DNA of 64,000 nucleotides from Bacteroidales bacterium (GTDB lineage: Bacteria > Bacteroidota > Bacteroidia > Bacteroidales > UBA932). The stretch is taken from the NCBI GenBank assembly GCA_017962025.1, contig JAGCWD010000083.1:5725-69724 (forward strand), given 5' to 3'. Positions 12,776 to 21,028 of the stretch are shown one piece after another. The notes under the pieces were generated by a model. The model was not told the DNA's origin. It saw only the letters and a list, made by a program, of their open reading frames with translations, and searched no databases. Made by a program: the position numbers and the translations under genes. Numbering within the stretch: position 1 is the stretch's first letter; each line of letters starts with the position of its first letter.

Positions 12776-12818
12776 CAAATATAAACCTTTTTTATCTCAA
12801 GAGGAAATTTTAACTTTG
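12776..12818. promoter_or_regulatory. Divergent -7 boxes for transketolase and the E2-E3-E1 operon
   Basis: CAAATATA at 12776-12783 (TATATTTG on minus strand) and TAACTTTG at 12811-12818. Confidence 0.65.
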
Positions 12819-12856
12819 TATGATCTTTCAGAGGTTCAAAAATAATAGCATAATCG

Positions 12857-14260
12857 ATGGCACAAGTTGTTATAATGCCCAAACAGGGGCAGTCTGTTGA
12901 AAGTTGCATAGTCACTGAATTCAAGAAAAAACCTGGCGACAAAGTCGCAGTCGGAGACATCCTTTTCAGTTATGAAACTGACAAGGCTTCTTTCGATGAG
13001 GAATCAAAGTTCGAGGGCACCGTCCTGGCTTGCTTCTTCAATGACAACGATGAGATTCCGTGCCTGACAAACGTGATGGTTATCGGTGAGCCCGGCGAGT
13101 CTTTCGAGGAGTTCGCTCCGGGGAATTCTGCGTCTGGGGATAATGGTGGTGAGGCGGGGGAGACTATATCCCCTGAAACCACTGCCACCCTCGGCACGTT
13201 AAGAGGGGGGACCGGAATGGAACGAGGTGGAGTGAGCGGTGGGGTCGAGCGAAGCGAGACGGTTTCAGGGGGTATAGTCTCCTCCGTCTTTTCTTCCGCC
13301 GTATCACCACGTGCTAGGCGTCTCGCGGCAGAGAAGGGAGTCGATGCTTCCCATATTGCCGGAAGCGGTCCCGGCGGCCGTGTCATCGAGAGGGATGTGC
13401 TCGCAGCCGCAACCGTCCCGATGTCCGGTCTGGCAAAAGCCATGATGAAGGAAGGCAATCTCCAGGCTCCTGCATTCGGTACCGGCATCGGTGGAATGGT
13501 CAGGGGTTCAGACCTCAAGACATGGAAACCTTCCCACTCGGAGATCCCCGGAGAAGGGACGGATTTCACCGTCGAGAAGATGTCCAACATGCGCAAGCTG
13601 ATTGCCAAGAGCATGTACAATTCCCTCCAGAACTCAGCCCAGCTAACCCACATGCTCGGAGCCGATGCCAGGAAGGTCCAGGCTCTTCGCAAGAAGGCAA
13701 AGAAGGCCCTCGAGGAAGGAAAGATCGATGCTAACGTTACCATCAACGATTTCGTCTGCTTTGCTGTCATAAAGGCCCTCCAGAAGTTTCCAAAGGTCAA
13801 TTCCCACTGCCTCGGTGATTCAATGAGGTTATTCAAGACAGTCAACCTGGGTTGTGCGGTTGATACGGAGCGCGGCCTCATGGTCCCGTGCATCAAGCAC
13901 GCTGAGGAACTTGACATCATAGCTCTCAGCAAAGCCCTCAAGCAGGTGGCCGATGACTGCCGTAAAGGCAGCATCAATCCCGACCTTCTCTCTTCGGAGG
14001 CTGCTTCCTTCACTGTCTCCAACCTCGGCGGTTTCGGGGTTGAGTGGTTCACTCCTGTGATCAACCTGCCTCAGAGCTGTATTCTCGGAGTGGGTACCAT
14101 AGTGCCGCGTCCGAAGGCTCTCGGCGGCGGTGAGTATGAGTTCGTCCCTTACCTCGGCCTGTCGCTCACTTATGACCACAGGGCGCTGGACGGTGGAGAG
14201 GCTACCCGCTTCCTCAAGCAGGTTGCAACTGAGATAGAGAATCTCGAGATTGATTTTTAG
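12857..14260 (+). CDS. Dihydrolipoamide acyltransferase E2 of a 2-oxoacid/acetoin dehydrogenase-like complex
   Basis: Lipoyl domain YETDKA, E3-binding SPRARRLA...GSGPGGRV, catalytic FTVSNLG and DHRALDG; linker contains a repeat element. Confidence 0.95.
   Translation: MAQVVIMPKQGQSVESCIVTEFKKKPGDKVAVGDILFSYETDKASFDEESKFEGTVLACFFNDNDEIPCLTNVMVIGEPGESFEEFAPGNSASGDNGGEAGETISPETTATLGTLRGGTGMERGGVSGGVERSETVSGGIVSSVFSSAVSPRARRLAAEKGVDASHIAGSGPGGRVIERDVLAAATVPMSGLAKAMMKEGNLQAPAFGTGIGGMVRGSDLKTWKPSHSEIPGEGTDFTVEKMSNMRKLIAKSMYNSLQNSAQLTHMLGADARKVQALRKKAKKALEEGKIDANVTINDFVCFAVIKALQKFPKVNSHCLGDSMRLFKTVNLGCAVDTERGLMVPCIKHAEELDIIALSKALKQVADDCRKGSINPDLLSSEAASFTVSNLGGFGVEWFTPVINLPQSCILGVGTIVPRPKALGGGEYEFVPYLGLSLTYDHRALDGGEATRFLKQVATEIENLEIDF
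13151..13290 (+). repeat. Structured palindromic repeat, copy A (in frame within E2)
   Basis: 30-bp terminal stem (13151-13180 / 13261-13290; 26 Watson-Crick plus 4 G-T pairs) around a core shared with 18198-18275. Confidence 0.9.
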
Positions 14261-14284
14261 TCCAAGGATATTAATTACTTCAAT

Positions 14285-15664
14285 ATGTACGATTTAGCGA
14301 TTATCGGCGGCGGTCCCGGTGGTTATGTGGCCGCAGAAAGGGCCGGAGCAGCCGGCCTCAAGGTCGTTCTTTTCGAAAGGAAGTCGCTCGGCGGAGTCTG
14401 CCTCAATGAAGGCTGCATCCCTACCAAGACCATTCTTTACAGCGCCAAGGTTTACAACTATGCCAAGACCGGCGACCATTATGGTGTCTATGTCAGCGAT
14501 CCCACATTCAAGTATGACGAGATCGTTGCCAGGAAGAACAAGGTTGTGAAGAAACTGGTCGGAGGAGTCCGGGTGGCCATGAAGGGAAACGGAGTCGAAG
14601 TCGTCGCAGAGAATGCCACTATCCAGGGTCGTGATGCCGAAGGAATCAAGGTCGAGGCTGCCGGCAACGTCTATGCTGCAAAGAACCTCCTGATCTGTAC
14701 CGGTTCTGAAGCTGCTGTTCCACCGTTCCCTGGCCTAAAGGAAGCCGGTGACGTCATCGTGACGAACCGCGAAATCCTGGCCATGACCGAAAGGCCAGAA
14801 GAGCTTGTCGTAATCGGTGGCGGAGTTATCGGAATGGAGTTTGCCGCTTTCTTCAGCACCCTTGGAACGAAGGTCACAGTGGTCGAGATGCTTCCCAAGA
14901 TTCTCGGACCCCTCGATGATGAGATCAGCGAGATGCTGCAGAAGCAGTATGAGAAGAGGGGAGTCGAGTTCTGCCTTCGCTGCAAGGTCACCGGAATCGA
15001 GGGCAATACCGTAGTTTATGAGGATCCGGAAGGTAAGGTCTGCCGCGTCAGCGGAGACAAGATCCTTGTGAGCGTGGGCCGCAGGGCCAGCCTCCAGGGC
15101 TTCGGTCTTGAGAACATCGGAGTCGAACTCGCTCTCAATCCCGCCGGACGTCCCTACGGCATCAAGGTCGACGAGAGGATGCGCACCAATGTCCCGGGAG
15201 TCTATGCTGCCGGAGACGTAACCGGTTTTTCAATGCTGGCCCACACCGCTTCACGAGAGGGCGAGGTTGCAGTAAACAATATCCTCGGAAAGGATGACAG
15301 GATGCGTTACAACGCCATCCCCGGTGTTGTCTATACCAATCCTGAGGTCGCAGGAGCCGGGATTACCGAGGCAGAAGCCAAGGCAAAGGGCATCGACTAC
15401 AAGGTCGTCAAGCTCCCTATGGCATATTCAGGTCGTTTTGTGGCCGAGAACGAGAGGGGAGAGGGAATCTGCAAGATCATAGTGGGCGCCGCCCATCATG
15501 AGGTCCTGGGAGTCCACATGCTTGGCAACCCCTGCTCCGAGATCATCCACAGCGCATGCCTGGCAATTGAGACAGAGATGACCCTGGAGCAGCTCCAGGA
15601 AGTCGTTTTCCCTCACCCTACAGTGTCAGAAATCATCAAGGAAACAGCATTTACAATCAAATAA
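14285..15664 (+). CDS. lpdA: Dihydrolipoamide dehydrogenase E3
   Basis: GGGPGGY, GGVCLNEGCIPTK redox disulfide, GGGVIG, HPTVSE. Confidence 0.97.
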   Translation: MYDLAIIGGGPGGYVAAERAGAAGLKVVLFERKSLGGVCLNEGCIPTKTILYSAKVYNYAKTGDHYGVYVSDPTFKYDEIVARKNKVVKKLVGGVRVAMKGNGVEVVAENATIQGRDAEGIKVEAAGNVYAAKNLLICTGSEAAVPPFPGLKEAGDVIVTNREILAMTERPEELVVIGGGVIGMEFAAFFSTLGTKVTVVEMLPKILGPLDDEISEMLQKQYEKRGVEFCLRCKVTGIEGNTVVYEDPEGKVCRVSGDKILVSVGRRASLQGFGLENIGVELALNPAGRPYGIKVDERMRTNVPGVYAAGDVTGFSMLAHTASREGEVAVNNILGKDDRMRYNAIPGVVYTNPEVAGAGITEAEAKAKGIDYKVVKLPMAYSGRFVAENERGEGICKIIVGAAHHEVLGVHMLGNPCSEIIHSACLAIETEMTLEQLQEVVFPHPTVSEIIKETAFTIK

Positions 15665-15677
15665 AAAGGAATTGACC

Positions 15678-18161
15678 ATGCCTAAAGCACTTTACATAGA
15701 TCCAGAAGTCACCCTGCGTCCCCAGGAACACGAACTCAAGCTCCCGGCCATCCCGGTGATGAAGTACAACAAGACCGTCAAGGAAGAGATCGAGAGCGGC
15801 CGTTTCACCAAGGAGGACCTTCTCCGCATTTTCCGTGACATGTCTTACATCCGCGAGTTCGAGACCATGCTCAACCTGGTCAAGACCACAGGAGGTTACA
15901 ATGGCGTTCCTTACAACAACCCCGGCCCTGCCCATCTATCAGCCGGTCAGGAAGCCGCTGCCGTCGGTATGGCCTATGCTCTTGACACTGACGACTTCAT
16001 ATTCGGAAGCCACCGCTCCCACGGCGAGATCCTGGCGAAGGGTCTCCGTTCGATCCAGATCCTTCCCGATGAGGAACTCAAGAAGGTTATGGATGAGTTC
16101 TGGGATGGTGCTACCGTGGCAGTAGCCAAGAAGGCATATTCAGGAACCGACACCAAGGAGTTGGGAATACGTTTCCTCCTCTACGGTGCAATGGCCGAGA
16201 TATTCGCCCGCACTACCGGTTTCAACAAGGGACTCGGTGGTTCGATGCACACCTTCTTCACTCCTTTCGGAATATATCCGAACAATGCGATCGTTGGTGG
16301 AAGCGGTTCCATCGCTGTGGGTGCCGCCCTCTTCAAGAAGGTCAACAGGAAGAAGGGTATCGTCGTAGCCAACCTCGGTGACGGTGCAATGGCCCGCGGT
16401 CCAGTGCTCGAAGGAATGACCTTCGCTTCAATGGACCAGGTCAACACCCTCTGGGAGGGTGACATGAAGGGTGGCCTGCCCGTCCTCTTCAATGTCATGG
16501 ACAACCAGTATGCAATGGGTGGCCAGACCAAGGGAGAGACCATGGGCTATACCTTCCCAGCACGTCTCGGCGCAGGTTTCAAGGCTGATGCCATGGACGC
16601 TGAGAGGGTTGACGGCTACAATCCTCTTGCAGTTATAGATGCCTTCTACCGCAAGAAGGCTTACCTCCTCGAGAAGAAGGGACCGGCCCTCCTGGATGTA
16701 GTGACCTACCGTTACAGCGGCCATTCCCCATCCGACCAGAGCTCCTACCGTACCAAGGAAGAGATCGAGGCCTGGGAGAAAGAAGACTGCATCGTAGCAT
16801 TCGGAAAGAAACTCATCGAGGCCGGAGTGGCCGATCAGGCAGCCCTTGACGCTATCCGCACCGAGGTTAACGCCAATATCTTCGAGTGCTACAAGCTTGC
16901 TATCGACGAGGAAATCTCTCCGAGGATGGATCTTGTGAAGCAGGATGAGCTTCTTGGCGAGATGATGTTCTCCAACCAGAGCATAGATTCCCTTTCTGAC
17001 GCAAAACCCGACGTACTGATGCCTATGGAGGATAATCCCCGAGTAAAACAGATTGCCGGAAAGGAGCGTTTCTGGCTTGGAAAGGACGGCAAGCCTGCCA
17101 GCAGCATGAAGGCATACAACTTCCGCGACGGAGTTTTCGAAGCTATAGTGGATCGCTTCTACAAAGATGCTTCCCTTATCGCCTATGGTGAGGAGAACCG
17201 CGAGTGGGGCGGTGCCTTCGCAGTTTATCGTGGACTGACTGAAGCCCTTCCTTATCACCGTCTGTTCAACTCTCCGATTGCCGAGGCTGCCATCATCGGT
17301 ACCGCTATCGGTTACGCGATGTGCGGTGGCCGTGTCATTCCTGAGATAATGTACTGCGACTTCCTCGGTTGCTGCGGCGACGAGATATTCAACCAGCTTC
17401 CTAAGTGGCAGGCCATGTCCGGCAACATCCTCAAGATGCCTGTGGTCGTGCGCGTTTCCGTCGGTTCCAAGTATGGTGCCCAGCACAGTCAGGACTGGAC
17501 AAGTCTCTGTACACATATTCCCGGACTGAAGGTTTGCTTCCCCGCGACTCCTTACGATGCCAAGGGTTTGATGAACGCTGCATTGCAGGGTACCGACCCT
17601 GTGATCTTCTTCGAGAGCCAGCGTCTCTACGGCATTGCCGAGAAGTTCCACGAAGGCGGAGTTCCGGAAGGCTACTATGAGATTCCTTTCGGAGAACCGG
17701 ACATCAAACGCGCCGGGAAGGATGTCACCATCCTTACAATCGGTGCTACCCTTTACAGGGCTTTTGAGGCTGCTGACATCCTGAAGGAGAAGTACGGAAT
17801 GGAGGCCGAGGTCATAGACGCCCGGTCCCTTGTCCCGTTCAATTACGACAAGGTGATCGAGTCAGTCAAGAAGACGGGCCGTATCATCATCGCTGGAGAT
17901 GCATGCGCCCGCGGATCCTACCTAAACGACCTCGCTGCCAATATCTCGGAGATGGCATTCGACTATCTGGATGCAGCACCCGTAGTCCTCGGTTCCCGCA
18001 ACTGGATCACTCCTTGTCATGAACTTGAGGAGGCCTTCTTCCCTCAGCCGTCCTGGTTCCTCGACGCTATCCACGAGAAGATCGTCCCTCTCAAGGACTA
18101 TGTTCCCACAAGCAACCAGACCATCGCCCAGATGCGTCTGCATGCCCGTAAAGGTATTTAA
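15678..18161 (+). CDS. Fused E1 alpha/beta ThDP-dependent dehydrogenase (AcoAB/PdhAB-like)
   Basis: Alpha: HLSAGQEA, HRSHG, GGSMH, GDGA...DNQY, YRYSGHS; beta: NSPIAE, EIMYCDF, GAQHSQ, IDARSL. Confidence 0.92.
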   Translation: MPKALYIDPEVTLRPQEHELKLPAIPVMKYNKTVKEEIESGRFTKEDLLRIFRDMSYIREFETMLNLVKTTGGYNGVPYNNPGPAHLSAGQEAAAVGMAYALDTDDFIFGSHRSHGEILAKGLRSIQILPDEELKKVMDEFWDGATVAVAKKAYSGTDTKELGIRFLLYGAMAEIFARTTGFNKGLGGSMHTFFTPFGIYPNNAIVGGSGSIAVGAALFKKVNRKKGIVVANLGDGAMARGPVLEGMTFASMDQVNTLWEGDMKGGLPVLFNVMDNQYAMGGQTKGETMGYTFPARLGAGFKADAMDAERVDGYNPLAVIDAFYRKKAYLLEKKGPALLDVVTYRYSGHSPSDQSSYRTKEEIEAWEKEDCIVAFGKKLIEAGVADQAALDAIRTEVNANIFECYKLAIDEEISPRMDLVKQDELLGEMMFSNQSIDSLSDAKPDVLMPMEDNPRVKQIAGKERFWLGKDGKPASSMKAYNFRDGVFEAIVDRFYKDASLIAYGEENREWGGAFAVYRGLTEALPYHRLFNSPIAEAAIIGTAIGYAMCGGRVIPEIMYCDFLGCCGDEIFNQLPKWQAMSGNILKMPVVVRVSVGSKYGAQHSQDWTSLCTHIPGLKVCFPATPYDAKGLMNAALQGTDPVIFFESQRLYGIAEKFHEGGVPEGYYEIPFGEPDIKRAGKDVTILTIGATLYRAFEAADILKEKYGMEAEVIDARSLVPFNYDKVIESVKKTGRIIIAGDACARGSYLNDLAANISEMAFDYLDAAPVVLGSRNWITPCHELEEAFFPQPSWFLDAIHEKIVPLKDYVPTSNQTIAQMRLHARKGI

Positions 18162-18176
18162 TCCTTCATGATGATG

Positions 18177-18296
18177 GACAGCCCCTTTCCATTTCCGAAC
18201 CGTCTCGCTGCGCTCGACCCCACCGTTCGCTGCGCTCCGGTCCCCCCTCTTAACGTGCCGAGGGTGGCAGTGGTTCTGAAACGGAAAGGGGCTGTC
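18177..18296 (-). repeat. Structured palindromic repeat, copy B (intergenic)
   Basis: 25-bp terminal stem (18177-18201 / 18272-18296, 2 mismatches); core is the reverse complement of the copy A core. Confidence 0.9.
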
Positions 18297-18327
18297 ATCG
18301 AAGAAATTGAAACAAAATAATCAGAAT

Positions 18328-19605
18328 ATGAAGACAAAAGCGGTACGCCTTTACGGCAAGGAAGACCTGAGGCTTGAGGAGTTCGAACTTCCTGAGATGA
18401 AGGAAGACGAAATTCTGGCCAAGGTAGTAAGCGACAGCATCTGCATGTCGTCCTATAAATCCTCCCATCAGGGAACGGACCACAAAAGGGTCCCCAATGA
18501 CATCGCAGAGAATCCTACGATCATCGGTCACGAATTCGCAGGAGTCATTGAGAAAGTCGGTTCGAAATGGAAGGACCAGTTCAAGCCCGGAGACAAGTTC
18601 TCCATTCAGCCTGCCATCAACTTTCCCGGAGGACCGGTCGGTGTGCTTTCTTCTCCCGGTTATTCCTACAAATACTCCGGAGGAGATGCGACTTATATCA
18701 TTATTCCTGCCGAGGTTATGGAGCAAGGCTGCCTTTTGCCTTACAACGGCCCTGGATTCTATCCTGCTTCATTGAGCGAACCCCTATCCTGTGTAATCGG
18801 TGCGATGCACGCATGCTACCACACCACCCCAGGATCCTATGTACATCAGATGGAGATTAAAGACGGAGGAAAGATGGCGCTGCTCGCAGGTGTCGGACCC
18901 ATGGGTCTTGCCATGATCAACTATGTCCTTCATCGTGAAGACCGTCGCCCTTCGCTCTTTGTGGTAACCGACATTGATCAGGCCCGCCTTGACAGGGCTG
19001 CGTCCCTTTACACCAAGGAATATGCTGCATCAAGGGGAGTCGATCTCCGCTATGTCAACACCGGTTCTGTCGAGAATCCTGCTGCATTCCTGCGTGAGAT
19101 CTCCGGGGGAACCGGCTACGACGAGGTTGTGGTCATGGCCCCTGTTCCCTCTGTCGTTGAACAGGGAGACGATATCCTCGGACAGGACGGTTGCCTCAAC
19201 TTCTTCTCCGGTCCGAGCAAGGCTGATTTCAAGGCACCGCTAAATTTCTACAATGTCCATTATGCTGCTACCCACATAGTTGGCACCAGCGGCGGAAATA
19301 CCGAGGACATGAAAGAAGCCCTCGACCTCATGGGTAAAGGAATGGATCCTGCCGGTCTTGTGACTCACATCGGTGGACTCAACGTTGTTCCTGAGACCAC
19401 TCTTCATCTCCCGGAAATCAAGGGAGGTAAGAAACTGATCTACACACATGTGGAGATGCCTCTGACTGCTATTACAGAGTTTGAGGAGAAGGGAAAGACC
19501 AACCCGGTCTATGCCGAACTCGACCGTCTCTGCAAGGCCAACAACGGTCTCTGGAACGTTGAAGCAGAAGAATATCTTCTCAGCCACGCCGACCAGCTGG
19601 CATAG
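18328..19605 (+). CDS. Zn-dependent MDR dehydrogenase, L-sorbose-1-phosphate reductase (SorE/YggP)-like
   Basis: MKTKAVRLYGKEDLRLEEFELP, SICMSS, GHEF, LSEPLSC, GVGPMG, VTDID; no structural-Zn Cys4 loop. Confidence 0.85.
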   Translation: MKTKAVRLYGKEDLRLEEFELPEMKEDEILAKVVSDSICMSSYKSSHQGTDHKRVPNDIAENPTIIGHEFAGVIEKVGSKWKDQFKPGDKFSIQPAINFPGGPVGVLSSPGYSYKYSGGDATYIIIPAEVMEQGCLLPYNGPGFYPASLSEPLSCVIGAMHACYHTTPGSYVHQMEIKDGGKMALLAGVGPMGLAMINYVLHREDRRPSLFVVTDIDQARLDRAASLYTKEYAASRGVDLRYVNTGSVENPAAFLREISGGTGYDEVVVMAPVPSVVEQGDDILGQDGCLNFFSGPSKADFKAPLNFYNVHYAATHIVGTSGGNTEDMKEALDLMGKGMDPAGLVTHIGGLNVVPETTLHLPEIKGGKKLIYTHVEMPLTAITEFEEKGKTNPVYAELDRLCKANNGLWNVEAEEYLLSHADQLA

Positions 19606-19692: not shown

Positions 19693-20088
19693 TCAATCAG
19701 TTGATTGATTATCTCCGGCGTTTTTCGATGGTGGTAAAAGACGTAACTTGTTAATATTCAATAAGGAATCGCATCCGAGAAAAATGGAGATTAACGTAAC
19801 AGAGATTGATGCGAAAATTGCGATGTACAGTTTCCATTCCCCAACGAATGTACGTATGCTGTCCATAGGGGCCAGGAGGATGAATGCCGTGATAAGGCAT
19901 CCTGTCACCATGCCTATGAGCAGGGTAACTGACATGGTAATGTGTCCGAGCCTCCGTTGACGGTCAACTTCATACTTGATTCCTTCAACGGCATTCAGCC
20001 TTTGCCTGACTTCCAGCAGGAAGGCCGGATCATCCTTGACAAGAGGCCTGTTTTCCCGGAGGAGCTTCTCTAATTCAATATCATTCAT
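19693..20088 (-). CDS. Membrane protein, probable anti-sigma factor
   Basis: Overlaps the stop of the ECF sigma gene; soluble N-terminus plus two hydrophobic helices. Confidence 0.6.
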   Translation of the reverse strand: MNDIELEKLLRENRPLVKDDPAFLLEVRQRLNAVEGIKYEVDRQRRLGHITMSVTLLIGMVTGCLITAFILLAPMDSIRTFVGEWKLYIAIFASISVTLISIFLGCDSLLNINKLRLLPPSKNAGDNQSTD

Positions 20089-20570: not shown

Positions 20571-21028
20571 TGCTCCTTGGGCGTCTCCAGTGCTTTTTCC
20601 TCTTTCTCAATCTCCTTGGCAAGAGTCTTTTTTCTGATAAAGTAAACTACAAGCAGTGCGGCTCCAACAGCAAACAGAATTCCCCCGAAATACGGTAACA
20701 GAATCATTACTGAGGGCCCGGTCTCATAAGTATAATTGTTTACAAGGCAGAAAACTATCCCGAGAATGATTAAGCATAATCCCAAGCCGATAAGGATGCA
20801 GGCTGCCGTCAAATAACCAAGAAGTCTTTCCTTGATGCTCTTCTTCCTAAAGGTTTGAGTTTGTGTTTTAAAGAGGTCATGGTCTAAAGGTGTGCCCGTC
20901 TCGATGGCCTTCAGCATTATTTCGGCCATCTTGTTGGTTTCATTCAGTTTTGTCCTCATTACCAGCCAGACGATAGCAATCGGCATTACTACGCACATGA
21001 AAAGGGGGAGGATAATGTCTTCCATCAT
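20567..21028 (-). CDS. Membrane protein (DUF6249-like), first gene of the ECF operon
   Basis: CVVMPIAIVW...IMLKAIETG pattern, 3 hydrophobic segments, 4-nt overlap with the sigma gene. Confidence 0.65.
   Translation of the reverse strand: MMEDIILPLFMCVVMPIAIVWLVMRTKLNETNKMAEIMLKAIETGTPLDHDLFKTQTQTFRKKSIKERLLGYLTAACILIGLGLCLIILGIVFCLVNNYTYETGPSVMILLPYFGGILFAVGAALLVVYFIRKKTLAKEIEKEEKALETPKEQ

Follow-up and report, generated by a model that had tools for sequence, protein, structure and literature searches.

Rickettsia palindromic elements (RPEs) are palindromic and non-autonomous repeats of ~100-150 bp that often lie in-frame in unrelated metabolic or housekeeping genes, where they add a peptide that leaves the protein intact, and that have no known mobilizing enzyme (Ogata et al. 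2000, as summarized in PMC10969869). The present study describes a hairpin family of the rumen Bacteroidales starting from two copies, A and B, in a 64,000-nt stretch (hereafter the window) of contig JAGCWD010000083.1, part of a metagenome-assembled genome (MAG) of a Bacteroidales bacterium (GCA_017962025.1, referred to as G000; 2.27 Mb, 132 contigs, 81% complete). With a probability of roughly 0.6, both belong to a hairpin-shaped mobile repeat that is non-autonomous, behaves like a MITE (miniature inverted-repeat transposable element) or an RPE, moves whole and folds single-stranded. The family is apparently undescribed. A literature search found no description of such a Bacteroidales or Cryptobacteroides repeat, and the Rfam search called for in the preliminary description of this DNA, which was made from its letters alone, gave no match for positions 12800-18700 on either strand at E up to 1.

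Like the RPEs, the repeats are palindromic and multi-copy (108-162 nt in full copies, 27-28 copies in the MAG) and frequently reside in-frame in intact genes (55 of 126 copies). The likeness drawn is one of kind, Rickettsia being of another phylum and an unrelated host lineage, and by this comparison the RPEs are the closest counterpart in behaviour. Whereas each RPE family has a consensus that spans its full length, conservation in the present family is confined to the interior, and almost every copy has terminal arms of its own; a covarying pseudoknot in the core and the in-place inversion of copies are further differences.

The family also recalls the REP/REPIN-RAYT system (repetitive extragenic palindromes and REP-associated tyrosine transposases), in which short, dispersed, non-autonomous hairpins act as folded single strands, leave the target unduplicated and are associated with a Y1 HUH enzyme of one domain whose gene lies elsewhere; three RAYT-like genes are present in the MAG. 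REPs are 20-40 nt long and extragenic, with conserved stems and variable loops, and a RAYT gene usually has its own REPs on either side. In contrast, the present elements are 108-162 nt long, 44% genic, variable in the stem and conserved in the interior, and the RAYT-like gene on contig C10 is flanked by a different hairpin. An identity with REP/REPIN was therefore rejected on size, extragenic position, stem conservation and flanking by own repeats. In addition, MITEs and IS200/IS605-derived PATEs (palindrome-associated transposable elements) resemble the family, as interpreted here, in being small, non-coding, multi-copy and mobilized in trans, and the IS200/IS605 derivatives resemble it in their hairpins, strand asymmetry and lack of target duplication. 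Classical MITEs are marked by terminal inverted repeats that are conserved and by duplications of the target site; this identity was rejected because no conserved terminal inverted repeats were seen among 131 copies and no target-site duplication was found. Nor was any insertion sequence found that has this core and could be the parent.

A conserved folded core within copy-specific stems

Copies A and B share 40 identical nt (13177-13216 in A; 18275-18236 of the minus strand in B), followed by a variable arm (20 nt in A, 10 nt in B) and a 28-nt block with a single-base difference between them. Their features are as follows, G numbers denoting the genomes compared.

13151..13290, +: copy A, whole hairpin, in-frame within the E2 acyltransferase gene, in the linker between the lipoyl and E3-binding domains
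12857..14260, +: gene hosting copy A, which encodes dihydrolipoamide acyltransferase (E2, 467 aa), its frame uninterrupted across the element
13151..13176, +: copy A, copy-specific 5' arm, pairing with 13265-13290 (four wobble pairs, otherwise matched)
13177..13264, +: copy A, core
13177-13180 (AACC) with 13261-13264 (GGTT), +: copy A, closing helix of the core
13183-13186 (TGCC) with 13193-13196 (GGCA), +: copy A, core helix S1
13188-13192 (CCCTC) with 13203-13207 (GAGGG), +: copy A, core helix S2, a pseudoknot with S1
13211-13240, +: copy A, variable hairpin 2
13244-13260, +: copy A, hairpin 3, with a GNA triloop
13265..13290, +: copy A, 3' arm
18173..18299, -: copy B, complete hairpin, in the gap separating the fused E1 gene (end 18161) from the next gene (ATG 18325)
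18198..18275, -: copy B, core (AACC ... GGTT)
18162..18321: ~160 nt replacing the 7-nt spacer of G076 and G048, made up of the copy B hairpin and tails of ~8 and ~25 nt

The stem of A has the 30 bp first ascribed to it, and its four non-Watson-Crick positions are all wobbles on the element strand (three G.T, one T.G). For B, the pairing noted in the preliminary description holds, whereas its limits and length (18177-18296, 25 bp) were corrected to 18173-18299 and ~27 pairs, with one G.T, one A.G and one bulge. Both element strands fold far better than shuffled sequences (z = -6.9 for A and -5.3 for B). Chance and an assembly artefact were both rejected.

Across full copies, the core is enclosed by a 25-38 bp stem that differs between copies. 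From the outside inwards, the copy-specific arm pair (20-35 bp) comes first, frequently with an A.G mismatch a few pairs outside the closing AACC/GGTT helix. Inside this helix lies TGCC-ACCCTC-GGCA (S1), whose loop pairs with the downstream GAGGG (S2); then come the variable hairpin 2, in ACCGG..CGGT or GGCCC..GGG forms, a GGGG and, finally, hairpin 3 with its G-N-A triloop (GCGAAGC, GCGCAGC or GCGGAGC). The 14 outer pairs that were modelled all varied on both sides in 98 distinct copies drawn from many species, with 94% of the cells paired. The TGCC/GGCA stem and the CCCTC/GAGGG loop pairing, both proposed from A and B alone, also showed compensatory changes: the S1 pair at alignment columns 21/35 occurred as UA (57), GC (16), AU (11) and CG (5), in an alignment fitted to S2 and not to S1, and S2 was 99.8% paired with five compensatory cells. 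S1 and S2 cannot both nest; together they form a compact H-type pseudoknot, as had been suspected from A and B.

The arms, by contrast with this conserved interior, were nearly all unrelated among 131 distinct copies from ~100 genomes, save for orthologues, which bears out the architecture first noticed in A and B. Only a dozen arm pairs were similar, and three of the five best that were inspected turned out to be orthologous sites. Within the MAG, no two of the 21 full copies shared arms, and their arms had no match elsewhere in the MAG above chance. The arms themselves showed a weak tendency to form hairpins (mean z -0.49 versus -0.21 in controls).

The mismatches in the stems indicate which strand folds. 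In alignment-based counts that treat all mismatches alike, the core-sense strand carried 81 G.T/T.G versus 33 A.C/C.A (p = 8e-6) and 48 G.A/A.G versus 5 C.T/T.C, a concentration that agrees with the strand-specific folding originally put forward. A symmetric mismatch count gave no bias, but that count cut the stems too short. The wobble bias was retained in copies lying antisense in genes (23 versus 7), showing that the selected fold is that of the element's own strand and not of the host mRNA. Together with the GNA triloops and the missing target duplication, this fits a single-stranded DNA intermediate.

The two opposite-orientation copies proved to belong to a family with at least 27 copies in the MAG. 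The exact 40-mer core occurred six times (nine times with up to three mismatches), iterated nhmmer gave 28 matches, and a covariance model 26-27. The true copy number is higher than counted, as the MAG is incomplete and several copies lie at contig ends. Of 151 genomes from the genus, the covariance model (R1) detected the element in 111; no more than 27 candidates were scored in each, so that the per-genome counts are lower bounds. It was also found in seven genomes from five other genera of the same family, one of which had at least 34 copies, and the covariance model matched none of the 119 other families of the order. In an exact-pattern scan with one genome per species, nearly all matches were rumen and gut Bacteroidales MAGs, one of them labelled Candidatus Cryptobacteroides, and the few high-GC outliers corresponded to the estimated chance number for an 18-base pattern in 596 billion bases. 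The ends of contigs C36 (25358-25403) and C119 (7891-7971) of G000 both stop inside what is apparently one copy, with a common arm GTTATCCCCTG and the core variant ACTGTTA, where the repeat breaks the assembly.

Insertion, loss and inversion at orthologous sites

A comparison of filled and empty orthologous sites, suggested by the preliminary description, revealed that presence is polymorphic among relatives (copy B, C34, QueH and MiaA sites). At the copy B site of G076 and G048, the stop codon is separated from AATATG by nothing but TTGATTG or TTAATTG, and neither arm is present. The spacer in G000 (18162-18324) holds, besides the hairpin, ~25 nt of A-rich sequence immediately upstream of the next gene's start; its absence in the relatives implies that the insertion of copy B also replaced the leader of that gene. 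The site on contig C34 carries the element in G000, G088 and G048 but not in G076, G135 or G101, whose three empty sites have neither of its arms. At QueH and PurD, too, some relatives have the element and others an empty site. Furthermore, two copies, L137 and L213, are ~97% alike over the whole hairpin and a few flanking bases (~135 nt), while their flanks on both sides are otherwise unrelated; in some cases at least, then, the arms travel with the core. Taken with the empty sites of B and C34, this likeness argues that the whole hairpin is the inserted unit.

Loss was also evident. The MiaA site is filled in G000, G088 and G135 and carries a decayed copy in G048, whereas exactly one arm is left in G076 and part of one arm in G101. 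As G076 and G101 are surrounded by carriers in flank similarity, these one-arm states are read as deletion remnants. In PurD of G000 (C116:15200-15420, locus L230, outside the window), a complete copy lies beside the 3' half of an older copy that is whole in G076, indicating either that the same loop was colonized twice or that the core was replaced. Two further inserts were observed in relatives. In G048, miaA (C66:74553-75821, locus L240) contains a composite insert whose 3' half is intact and whose 5' half consists of ~130 nt of other GC-rich hairpin sequence. In G101, queH (C242:28500-29228, locus L249) has a different GC-rich insert, with small hairpins of its own (GCGAAAGC, GGTTTGGGGGCGGCCAAACCCC), at the loop where G000 and G076 carry the element; it may represent a second repeat family or a decayed copy.

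The preliminary description had suggested that the stems might arise by inverted copying of flanking DNA. In such local building, a bare core would insert and the neighbouring host DNA would be copied in inverted form by fold-back or template-switch synthesis, so that each stem would duplicate its own flank. In favour of this, TTTCTGCTA pairs with TAGCAGAGA in the outermost 9 bp of the MiaA stem of G000, where TAGCAGAGA spans the conserved host codons Ala-Glu-Ile and TTTCTGCTA aligns with host sequence of G076; at QueH, the start of the 5' arm resembles sequence retained in G135; and PurD of G000 shows a new perfect 3' arm and a second partial hairpin 3 beside the remains of the older element. 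However, neither arm of B is found at the 7-nt empty site of G076 and G048, nor those of C34 at its three empty sites, L137 and L213 have both arms in common at unrelated loci, and the one-arm MiaA genomes, nested among carriers, are better explained by deletion. Local stem building is thus unlikely and does not hold as the main mechanism; outward growth of the stem into host codons may still occur as a secondary process, as in the outer 9 bp at MiaA.

The interior was also found to turn round in place. The core lies in opposite orientations, with the flanks kept and the arms recognizably the same, in two pairs of orthologous sites (L088 versus L091, L077 versus L122), at the C34 site in G048, at MiaA in G135 and probably at the E2 site of G048. 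The arms diverge between orthologues as the core stays constant. In MiaA of G000 and G088, the core blocks (38 and 25 nt by alignment reading) are identical, whereas the arms, compared by eye, agree at ~65% and differ by compensatory pairs, GGGAGG/CCTCCC in G000 standing opposite TGGAAG/CTTCCA in G088. Likewise, arms at E2 and QueH diverge between G000 and G076 around identical core blocks, and one E2 arm pair changes from T-A to C-G.

In the mechanism proposed for a repeat that moves whole, the complete hairpin (arms and core) is inserted and lost as a unit, as is observed, and its centre is turned round in place, for which recombination between the two arms would be the simplest route; such recombination would also keep the arms alike through gene conversion. 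With the arms constrained only to pair mutually, they would drift fast with compensatory changes, and old copies would end with unrelated stems, a drift that is seen among orthologues and would extend to paralogues. The near-constant core (H-type pseudoknot, variable hairpin, GNA-triloop hairpin and AACC/GGTT) is taken as the part that would be recognized. Its sense strand folds by itself whatever the direction of the host gene, and the intermediate would accordingly be single-stranded DNA and not host mRNA. Copies would persist where harm is small, between genes or in-frame in linkers and surface loops, the genic ones being predicted to be translated as 35-55 extra residues.

Residence in host genes and functional alternatives

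Across species, 55 of the 126 copies (44%) were located in frames open for at least 60 codons on both sides, 26 in sense and 29 in antisense orientation. In the window, copy A is read through as part of the E2 linker, where relatives without the insert have ordinary Ala/Pro linkers; the preliminary description of the repeat had mentioned neither this nor the genic position of about half of the family. Other in-frame copies of G000 lie between two GH3 domains, after the P-loop helix of MiaA, inside the GARS_C domain of PurD, near the end of PurH, inside QueH and in the linker of a SpoU methylase, and one copy is antisense inside TrmB. Pfam matches were obtained on both sides of the insert in several of these hosts (GH3, PurD, QueH and SpoU methylase), and relatives without the insert in PurD and QueH have short native loops. 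By the author's reading, the core consensus is open in four of six frames. The element has no coding capacity of its own, in keeping with its earlier designation as non-autonomous.

The constancy of the core could alternatively reflect a host function, such that the core is kept by selection at each locus as a structured small RNA or as a protein-binding or structure-forming DNA site, with mobility only its origin. Orthologous cores are nearly identical even at synonymous positions while arms and flanks diverge, all helices covary, and the asymmetry tracks the core strand rather than the host gene. Against this, half of the copies lie within unrelated housekeeping genes in both orientations, their distribution is patchy among species with frequent loss and decayed copies, no Rfam family matches, and the copies were collected by core similarity, which favours intact cores. 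On balance, such a per-locus function is also improbable. A more specific variant, rather doubtful, holds that the core is a functional folded single-stranded motif (pseudoknot and GNA hairpins) selected at each locus, for example because the host tolerates an insertion only with an intact core, and that arm-mediated flipping would act as a built-in switch of a 35-55-residue housekeeping-enzyme loop between two peptide versions.

Stems of 25-38 bp are long enough as RNase III substrates and would bring both insertion boundaries together, yet removal of the hairpin from the mRNA at the stem base with rejoining of the ends, leaving proteins without extra residues, is very improbable and an intron-like RNA element was rejected, because at least six G000 host proteins keep a single frame, the insert lying between Pfam domains, the 55 of 126 copies in frames open on both sides show a frame and stop-codon hygiene that removal would render needless, and genic copies are equally often antisense, in which case the mRNA holds the weaker-pairing strand.

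Candidate enzyme and significance

Movement of an element lacking coding capacity would require an enzyme acting in trans. A search of the MAG for a reverse transcriptase (RVT_1) gave no match. Three paralogous proteins of ~295 aa in the MAG match Y1_Tnp/REP-associated tyrosine transposase weakly and contain an HUH motif (NHIHFL) and a Tyr-x3-Asn motif; they are encoded on contigs other than that of the window, and no copy of the hairpin family adjoins any of them. A PDB sequence search with the Y1-like protein gave no useful match. In the 151 genomes, which are related, a Y1-like homologue (one protein query) was associated with the element (71/5/40/35, odds ratio 12), and Pfam Y1_Tnp matches occurred in five of five high-copy versus two of five element-free genomes, small and related samples. 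A RAYT-type Y1 HUH tyrosine transposase may be considered the leading, though weakly supported, candidate for the mobilizing enzyme. On C10, hairpins at 19791-19896 and 20910-21016 (locus L265, outside the window), with AT-rich outer arms (CTGTTATGTAAGTA...) around a CAGACGGTCTCGATTTCGGGACCGTCTG hairpin, bracket one Y1 gene in the layout expected of an IS200-like or REP-RAYT unit.

Several observations weigh against a mobile repeat mobilized in this way. That Y1-like gene (C10:19930-20808) is flanked by its own, unrelated 105-nt hairpins and not by this element; moreover, Y1-like proteins are widespread and varied, and genomes that are related do not count as independent samples. For B, the searches revealed no donor: its arm had no match at 0-1 mismatches in 400 genomes of the genus, the 46 genomes matched at two mismatches compare with ~30 matches of a reversed control pattern, and metagenome scans for the arms of B and of A gave no match. 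The absence of shared arms among the 21 full copies of the MAG implies that recent copying is rare or that donors are unassembled. Orthologous cores are nearly identical between species whose flanks are 74-89% alike, whereas a selfish element should decay in place; this constancy calls for ectopic gene conversion, rapid removal of copies that decay, or a function at the level of the host. The ends, cleavage sites and target motif could not be defined from the copies compared: the longest word common to both flanks averaged 3.82 nt versus 3.56 nt for permuted partners, giving no sign of a target-site duplication, and no flank motif was found around the copies. Also, an element-borne transcript may be compatible with the strand bias, as sequence does not discriminate between RNA and DNA.

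As a mobile repeat, the family would represent a second, independent case of selfish hairpin DNA inside essential genes, in abundant gut and rumen bacteria, Rickettsia having been the textbook example so far. Its reversed architecture separates the requirement for pairing from that for recognition and would thus offer a clean system in which to find the enzyme and the single-stranded intermediate. In rumen Bacteroidales, the inserts also interfere with gene calling, with the alignment of proteins and with the assembly of MAGs, as seen here in the several copies at which contigs end. Moreover, in-place flipping alters the peptide borne by a housekeeping enzyme and is a possible source of protein-loop novelty.

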